64,000 nt of DNA from Octopus vulgaris. Taxonomy: Eukaryota. Numbering within the stretch: the stretch's first letter is position 1; each line of letters begins with the position of its first letter. The stretch spans positions 26,350,001-26,414,000 of the forward strand of contig OX597833.1 of NCBI GenBank assembly GCA_951406725.2. The letters are read 5' to 3'. This document shows positions 30,178-30,345 of this stretch, in pieces. The notes below the pieces were generated by a model. The model saw only the letters and a program-made list of their open reading frames with translations, was not told the origin of the DNA and ran no database searches. Both the position numbers and the translations under genes were made by a program.

Positions 30178-30345
30178 ACCTCGATATTATGTAAAATAGA
30201 CGAATTTATCTATAAATGTAATATGTGACAATTACTTGGTTGTCACCGAAACGCTGAGTAGACAGAACAGGGGTCAACTGATGAAGGCAATGTTCTTTTA
30301 TGTTGCTTGTCTCGTTTCTCTATTTTTTTCTTTCGTTGCCCGAAT
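30178..30345 (+). mobile_element. Microsatellite-embedded mini-element, family H2 (copy 2)
   Basis: CCGAAACGC at 30246-30254 and CTGATGA at 30278-30284. Runs into a (TA)n of about 190 bp. Confidence 0.7.

Follow-up and report, generated by a model that had tools for sequence, protein, structure and literature searches.

A dispersed Penelope-type repeat of Octopus vulgaris carrying its hammerhead blocks as cut site–GAAA–CUGANGA, with stem II probably closed from upstream

Type-SGC hammerhead ribozymes, whose blocks follow one another in the order cut site–GAAA–CUGANGA, cleave in vitro and, in the accessible part of the paper by Eckert et al. (2023), are reported only from metatranscriptomes, with none in the genomes of known organisms; the authors assume that the block made up of CUGANGA and stem II cannot be interrupted (PMC10085705). 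Among the literature searched, the term 'type-SGC' was met only in that paper. The minimal type I hammerheads of PLEs have almost no stem III and act as dimers, and cleavage, circularisation and more-than-unit copying have been proposed for them (Cervera and De la Pena, 2014; PMC4209133, accessible part). Non-LTR retrozymes are described as PLE-derived, non-coding head-to-tail units of 170–400 nt with one hammerhead each (accessible parts of PMC7229834 and bioRxiv 10.64898/2026.07.22.740005). Naiads, which encode EN and RT, were reported by Craig et al. (2021) to lack canonical hammerheads, with Naiad_Ovul and Naiad_Esco marked 'HHR_half_core', and, in the accessible part of that paper, are described as long inactive in cephalopods (PMC8557442).

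Here we describe a repeat family, H2, found in a 64,000-nt stretch of Octopus vulgaris DNA (contig OX597833.1, positions 26,350,001 to 26,414,000; referred to as the window) and across the genome. Intact copies of this repeat, which is present thousands of times, carry hammerhead parts in the scrambled order cut site–GAAA–CUGANGA. With an additional strand upstream of the cut site, these parts probably fold as a self-cleaving ribozyme that closes its stem II from upstream and cuts its own RNA during Penelope-type copying. H2 shares with type SGC (HRIMA-1 and the SGC variants) the block order, a short link between stems I and II, and a fourth helix joining the tips of these two stems. However, the strands of stem II and of the 'I' helix follow CUGANGA in type SGC, whereas both lie 5' of the cut in H2, and thousands of copies in an animal genome contrast with an origin from metatranscriptomes only (PMC10085705, accessible part). 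Like the PLE hammerheads, the motif lies near the 3' end of PLE-type repeats and has G10.1–C11.1 (PMC4209133, accessible part); it differs from them in a 4–6-bp stem III extended by the fourth helix, P0, and in its non-circular order. The head-to-tail, non-coding units resemble non-LTR retrozymes but measure 830–900 nt. The type I hammerhead of those retrozymes was not found in intact H2 copies, and type I descriptors therefore miss such units.

Within the window, the features are as follows:

30247..30347, plus strand: 5'-truncated H2a copy, beginning at +13 after the predicted cut, with its 3' end in (TA)n; core strands GAAA 30248–30251, ACGCU 30251–30255 (stem III, mutated), GGUCAA 30272–30277 (stem I, mutated) and CUGAUGA 30278–30284
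29455..29701, minus strand: 5'-truncated H2a copy, +13 to about +262, inverted partner of the preceding copy; core strands GAAA 29700–29697, ACGCG 29697–29693, GGACAA 29676–29671 and CUGAUGA 29670–29664
58105..58493, plus strand: H2 copy of the CUGAAGA subfamily, in which a 30-nt internal deletion takes out the GAAA block and the stem I strand
58205..58209, plus strand: GAAGG, the stem II strand upstream of the cut site, beginning with G10.1; the CCUUC with which it would pair is damaged in the 58105..58493 copy
58211..58217, plus strand: 5' strand of P0, CUGUUUC
58226..58237, plus strand: cut-site block, with CGCGU from 58226 on (stem III), C17 at 58231, the predicted cut at 58231/58232 and UUGUUC (stem I; UUGUCC in the family)
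58245..58251, plus strand: CUGAAGA core
15979..16051, plus strand: intact motif of the unrelated family H1 with the same five-strand layout; stem II GGCUG 15979–83 / CAGCC 16012–16, P0 CCGGAUC 15985–91 / GAUCCGG 16031–37, stem III GCGAU 15995–99 / AUUGC, C17 at 16000, stem I UCAAGA 16001–06 / UCUUGA 16039–44, GAAA 16017–20 and CUGAAGA 16045–51

All three H2 copies in the window are broken, in agreement with the earlier note, which had found none complete and had pieced the motif together from them. Its motif positions were right in the three copies, but the plus-strand copy at 30.2 kb reads ACGCU and GGUCAA where ACGCG and GGACAA had been given. In the inverted pair 29601–29778/30170–30347, the two H2a copies have one common foreign flank. 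Because both copies start at +13 and share this flank, they represent a single insertion event, and the 'CC' that precedes GAAA is a product of the junction; the family has CCUUC. The flank itself belongs to a dispersed repeat (30170–30246, 29702–29769, 43916–43977 and 21328–21426).

Several further repeats lie in the window. Ribozyme-less fragments of the 3' part of H2 were seen at 36968–37142, 23326–23480, 14618–14757 and 43816–43908, and a truncated H1c-type copy on the minus strand (32150–32204) opens at GA-CUGAGGA after (TA)n. At 47908–47989, an 82-nt near-perfect palindrome has CUGAAGA on both strands and may be an inversion junction from a different family. Another CUGAUGA-bearing repeat, present in two copies (42580–42715, plus; 22106–22240, minus), was not called by our strict descriptor. 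An Rfam scan of the window returned no hammerhead among the best 150 of 381 matches, and those were driven by microsatellites.

The genome (2.8 Gb, microsatellite-rich) was searched for exact matches. A 27-mer joining the cut site to GAAA gave 14 matches, an 18-mer of the CUGAUGA block 540 and a 22-mer further 3' in H2 4213; reversed-pattern controls gave 0, and chance is thereby excluded as the source of the motif. Intact genomic relatives read CGCGUC^UUGUCC-CUA-CCUUC-GAAA-CGCG-16 nt-GGACAA-CUGAUGA-AGGG (^, predicted cut), with the upstream block 14 nt before GAAA as the reconstruction had required. The scrambled strand order proposed in the earlier note (there A-C-B, that is, S-G-C) fits 12 of the 14 intact genomic copies. 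A conventional downstream GAAA partner was also looked for: canonical block orders occurred sporadically, near only two of the 14 copies and at differing places. When 90 copies were chosen on the CUGAUGA block alone, 50 reached past −12 and 44 had the cut-site block at ≤3 substitutions. In 1.85 Mb of fetched loci, a set chosen for the presence of these families, the strict descriptor found 131 matches; three shuffled versions gave 0.

Further H2 subfamilies have changed both sides of the stems. H2b reads CAUGUA^UCGCCU with ACGUG and AGGCGA; H2e/f (1349 exact matches) reads CGUGU(U/C)^CUGUC with ACACG and GACAG; H2c and H2d (1313 exact matches) were also recognised. For H2d, truncated copies ending in AGCGA-CUGAAGA led us to predict ^UCGCU in the cut-site block, which was later found. 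In a covariation set of 15 representatives, hand-picked to cover the subfamilies, 93.9% of cells were paired and 15 of the 22 pairs changed on both sides (stem I, 5/6; stem III, 3/5; P0, 6/6; stem II, 1/5). None of 500 shuffles scored as high, a test that overstates significance because the representatives are related, and structures slid along the alignment paired in 37–47% of cells. CUGANGA, GAAA, U16.1 and H17 (NUH) were invariant in all 15 while the stems changed; the cleavage triplets were GUC, GUA, GUU and AUC, and the cut lay 13–16 nt from GAAA, giving the short S–G link of type SGC. Stem III, the GUC triplet and stem I of the earlier reconstruction were thus borne out, except that UUGUUC at 58232, which had been paired with GGACAA, is a private change of that copy (family UUGUCC). 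A similar order and linker length in the unrelated H1 had also been noted; H1 has the same layout, and the strand between stems III and I measured 10–16 nt in all but one (a false match) of 102 motifs. The matches of the strict descriptor include the unrelated or distant families H1c, H3, H4 and H5 with the same order; these bystanders were seen in one to three copies each (L293:7270–7360; L121, minus strand, near its start; L237, minus strand; L009; L082; L331). Overall, H2 shows a real, strongly covarying hammerhead architecture that would work like type SGC but lacks two of its defining features.

One of these features is the unbroken block C, in which a stem II strand directly follows CUGANGA. 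In H2, this position offers a weak, G.U-rich alternative after a bulged A, which paired in 76% of cells, mostly as G.U and without covariation. The complement of the strand before GAAA instead adjoins P0 on its 5' side, about 27 nt upstream of the cut: GAAGG/CCUUC in H2, GGCUG/CAGCC in H1 and GAGCA/UGCUC in H5, each opening with G10.1–C11.1. A perfect 5-bp Watson–Crick partner of the pre-GAAA strand was present upstream in 65 of 93 distinct motifs, compared with 0/93 in the 20 nt after A9 and 3/93 in a control window. With the upstream strand, 98.7% of stem II cells were paired, and G10.1–C11.1 was G–C in 13 of 15 representatives. One H2a lineage has changed both sides: where the upstream strand is GAACG, 7 of 9 copies carry CGUUC or a CpG-decay derivative of it, compared with 1 of 35 copies where it is GAAGG (p=7e-6); this comparison leaves out 8 of 52 copies with other letters and reflects one lineage event. 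The downstream AGGG was unchanged in this lineage. The stem II of the earlier note, CC/GG after a bulged A, falls with its junction-derived 'CC', the strand before GAAA appearing to pair with the upstream strand. Taken together, these data make it likely that stem II closes with the upstream strand and not with what follows A9. A second GAAGG within CUGA(U/A)GAAGG of H2 could trap G8–A9.

The earlier reconstruction also lacked P0, which covaries and lengthens stem III. P0 forms between the G–C linker and a strand 5' of the cut site, with −8.8 kcal/mol for the own partner versus −5.1 kcal/mol for swapped partners. It prolongs stem III on both strands and ends 0–1 nt from stem I in most representatives; it is very stable in H2e and H1 and weak in the single H3, H4 and H5 copies. 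A helix between the linker and the 3' tail, the 'I' helix and thus the other defining feature of type SGC, showed no specificity (own, −4.4; swapped, −4.0 kcal/mol). In terms of strand connectivity, H2 has the type SGC layout in circularly permuted form: the chain is interrupted between A9 and G10.1, and the I helix is linked to the cut-site block. If the two ends of a published type-SGC RNA were joined and the resulting ring broken after A9, exactly the H2 layout would result, with P0 as the 'I' helix. No precedent for a break between A9 and G10.1 was found in the accessible text of the literature searched. From 5' to 3', the predicted layout would start with GAAGG (stem II), pass through one strand of P0, a loop, one strand of stem III, N17, the cut and one strand of stem I, and continue after 2–5 nt with CCUUC (stem II), GAAA with the second strand of stem III, a loop, the second strand of P0, 0–1 nt, the second strand of stem I and CUGANGA.

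The 5' ends of genomic copies pile up at the predicted cut. Among 173 copies of four families, chosen on the CUGANGA block, 65 ends fell in −3..+32 and 8 in −39..−4, and, close to the cut, 21 in 0..+7 and 2 in −8..−1; the window edges were fixed after the data had been seen. Loci with overlapping arrays or duplicates (L087, L144, L199, L216, L227, L228, L230, L237 and L315) had been dropped before this pooled count. By family, the ratio was significant for H2a (38:5) and H1 (15:0), with H2d at 6:1 (p=0.125) and H2e at 6:2 (p=0.29). In a control anchored 171 nt downstream, 7 of 30 ends fell in 0..+36, compared with 1, 2 and 1 in neighbouring 36-nt bins. RT stalling at a hairpin could yield the ends at +13..+36, but not the edge at 0. 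The pile-up is likely a footprint of cleavage.

These ends might alternatively reflect RT stalling or a start site in a structured RNA element, such as a priming or packaging signal, that no longer cleaves. Nested folds do not exceed shuffled sequences in stability (z, −1.5 to +0.6), and H2a copies are about 10–15% diverged; against this, the catalytic letters are kept in every representative while the stems vary, and the 5'-end step falls at each family's own NUH, so that we regard a non-cleaving element as very improbable. Somewhat less remote, but still improbable, is a plain type-SGC hammerhead with its stem II after a bulged A following A9, for which the upstream pairings would serve only as a lock or ligation clamp. 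In H2, the bases after A9 are almost always AGGG, which offers G10.1–C11.1 plus G.U pairs, and an additional base following A9 characterises PLE hammerheads (PMC4209133) and SGC-1 (PMC10085705; both accessible in part). The downstream strand, however, shows neither covariation nor a single perfect match among the 93 motifs, it stayed AGGG when CCUUC became CGUUC, and a downstream complement is scant or absent in H1c, H3, H4, H5 and Naiad.

A further question is whether one molecule suffices. In the fold that we consider most likely, a single molecule would bend its III–P0 hairpin at a G.A-rich loop (k-turn-like in H1 and Naiad), letting P0 reach back, strut-like, to the tips of stem I and stem II. 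Between stem III and P0, the loop fits the k-turn pattern in 24 of 29 motifs from H1, in 7 of 9 from Naiad and in the single one from H4, and H2 fits only the reversed form with a 2-nt bulge (16/24 H2a); the descriptor builds on the k-turn consensus and is loose, with 28% of swapped controls passing as well, so that the fit is a hint. For the internal loop of H2 (AGUA/GAA), a loop-E reading and a reversed k-turn both fit. With the same helices, the ribozyme could instead be an obligate two-copy one, in which the long III+P0 hairpin cannot fold back and the strands at its foot bind a partner copy's loop; circles of one unit would then escape re-cutting. P0 adds −6 to −18 kcal/mol in H2 and H1 and forms before the core is transcribed, tandem arrays exist, and metazoan PLE and retrozyme hammerheads act as dimers (accessible parts of PMC4209133 and PMC7229834). 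H2f links stem III to P0 by 0 nt on one strand, without a G.A loop, which, together with the high stability of P0 in H2e and H1, makes docking of one copy's foot on another's loop possible. A two-copy fold, however, has no need of a linker held to 10–16 nt across unrelated families, and the k-turn-like loops of H1 and Naiad also speak against it. Moreover, predicted type-SGC RNAs with no nucleotide between stem III and the I helix have been published, and single-copy SGC constructs cleave (PMC10085705, accessible part). An obligate two-copy ribozyme appears unlikely, and the one-molecule fold is moderately favoured, at about twice the likelihood of a fold from two molecules.

In H2d, the carrier unit measures 832 nt, is non-coding, with no long reading frame, and holds one hammerhead; its copies stand head to tail in arrays. 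These arrays share a fixed terminus, TA-rich and some 255 nt past the cut, in (TA)n; their 5' ends vary, and inversions lie next to them. The PLE traits of 5' truncation, partial tandems, (TA)n targets and adjacent inversions are all present (e.g., L025, L067, L071 and L082), and H2 is a non-autonomous Penelope-type repeat of about 830 nt. Array units differ at 0–1 positions in 246 nt within arrays (6 pairs) and at 1–4 between arrays (30 pairs); rolling-circle copying or recent duplication would give such near-identity. H1 likewise forms a tandem unit, of 830 nt, with 2292 exact matches in the genome, and is young (99% alike; e.g., G000:C6:85539762–85545543). Contigs spanning the ribozyme exist for four differently coded organisms, a type of record that shows neither RNA ends nor their level. 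Building on the observed order, covariation and copy structure, the scheme that explains them best posits cleavage, circles and a helper. Multimeric transcripts would be cleaved into monomers, whose ends, clamped by III+P0, would be ligated to circles. A Penelope-type RT/endonuclease, supplied in trans, would start priming at the TA-rich site some 255 nt past the cut, on (TA)n targets; a linear template would then give short copies stopping at the cut, and a circular or uncut one long tandem copies running through it.

No frame for RT plus GIY-YIG was present in the 832-nt unit or linked to H2 copies among the fetched loci, nor did H2 show a sequence connection with an autonomous element. A candidate helper is a very young autonomous Penelope-type element (L280–L289) that has pseudo-LTRs and open frames as long as about 1200 aa and in which RT, a CxxC linker and, at the C terminus, GIY-YIG were recognised by eye; Pfam searches with three short fragments of it returned 0 families. 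We take this element to be Neptune-type. Its motif, UUGAAGA-GCGUAGGCUC-GAAACGUUA, looks by eye like a minimal type I hammerhead with U3. Among 30 loci of an older GIY-YIG-like family, one bystander H1-type match was the only hit. The word CACGTG occurs in the H1 and H2a units and just after the pseudo-LTR of the autonomous element (L051, L066 and L280) and is possibly a promoter box.

The same layout extends to some Naiads. By eye, all five strands were found in the 3' end of Naiad_Ovul and likewise in that of the record before it, and most of them in Naiad_Esco; the layout was not seen by eye in Naiad_Omin, Naiad_Adux, Naiad-1_Skow or Naiad-3_Dst. The Naiad_Ovul motif has 189 exact matches in the genome. 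Among 20 loci with the Naiad motif, a same-strand RT fragment lies 1.1 kb upstream in one, and two start at the cut. Naiads and H2 share (TA)n targets, 5' truncation, partial tandems and inversions, but H2, in contrast to the EN- and RT-encoding Naiads, encodes nothing, and it has no sequence match to them (PMC8557442, accessible part).

The architecture was not found in the accessible text of the literature searched. We lean towards the view that it represents a natural hammerhead in which CUGANGA is unjoined to stem II, a seventh connectivity beyond the six permutations considered possible, that its fold centres on a kinked strut helix and operates in vivo in many thousand copies of animal retroelements, and that it is the missing ribozyme of cephalopod, and perhaps further, Naiads. 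The many natural compensatory variants are ready constructs for a cleavage test and for structure determination. If this view is correct, non-circularly permuted hammerheads would move from unidentified environmental RNAs into animal chromosomes, and the rule of an unsplittable CUGANGA block would be broken. It would also account for the Naiads scored as hammerhead-less, and would mean that type I, II and III descriptors overlook a large class of retrozymes.
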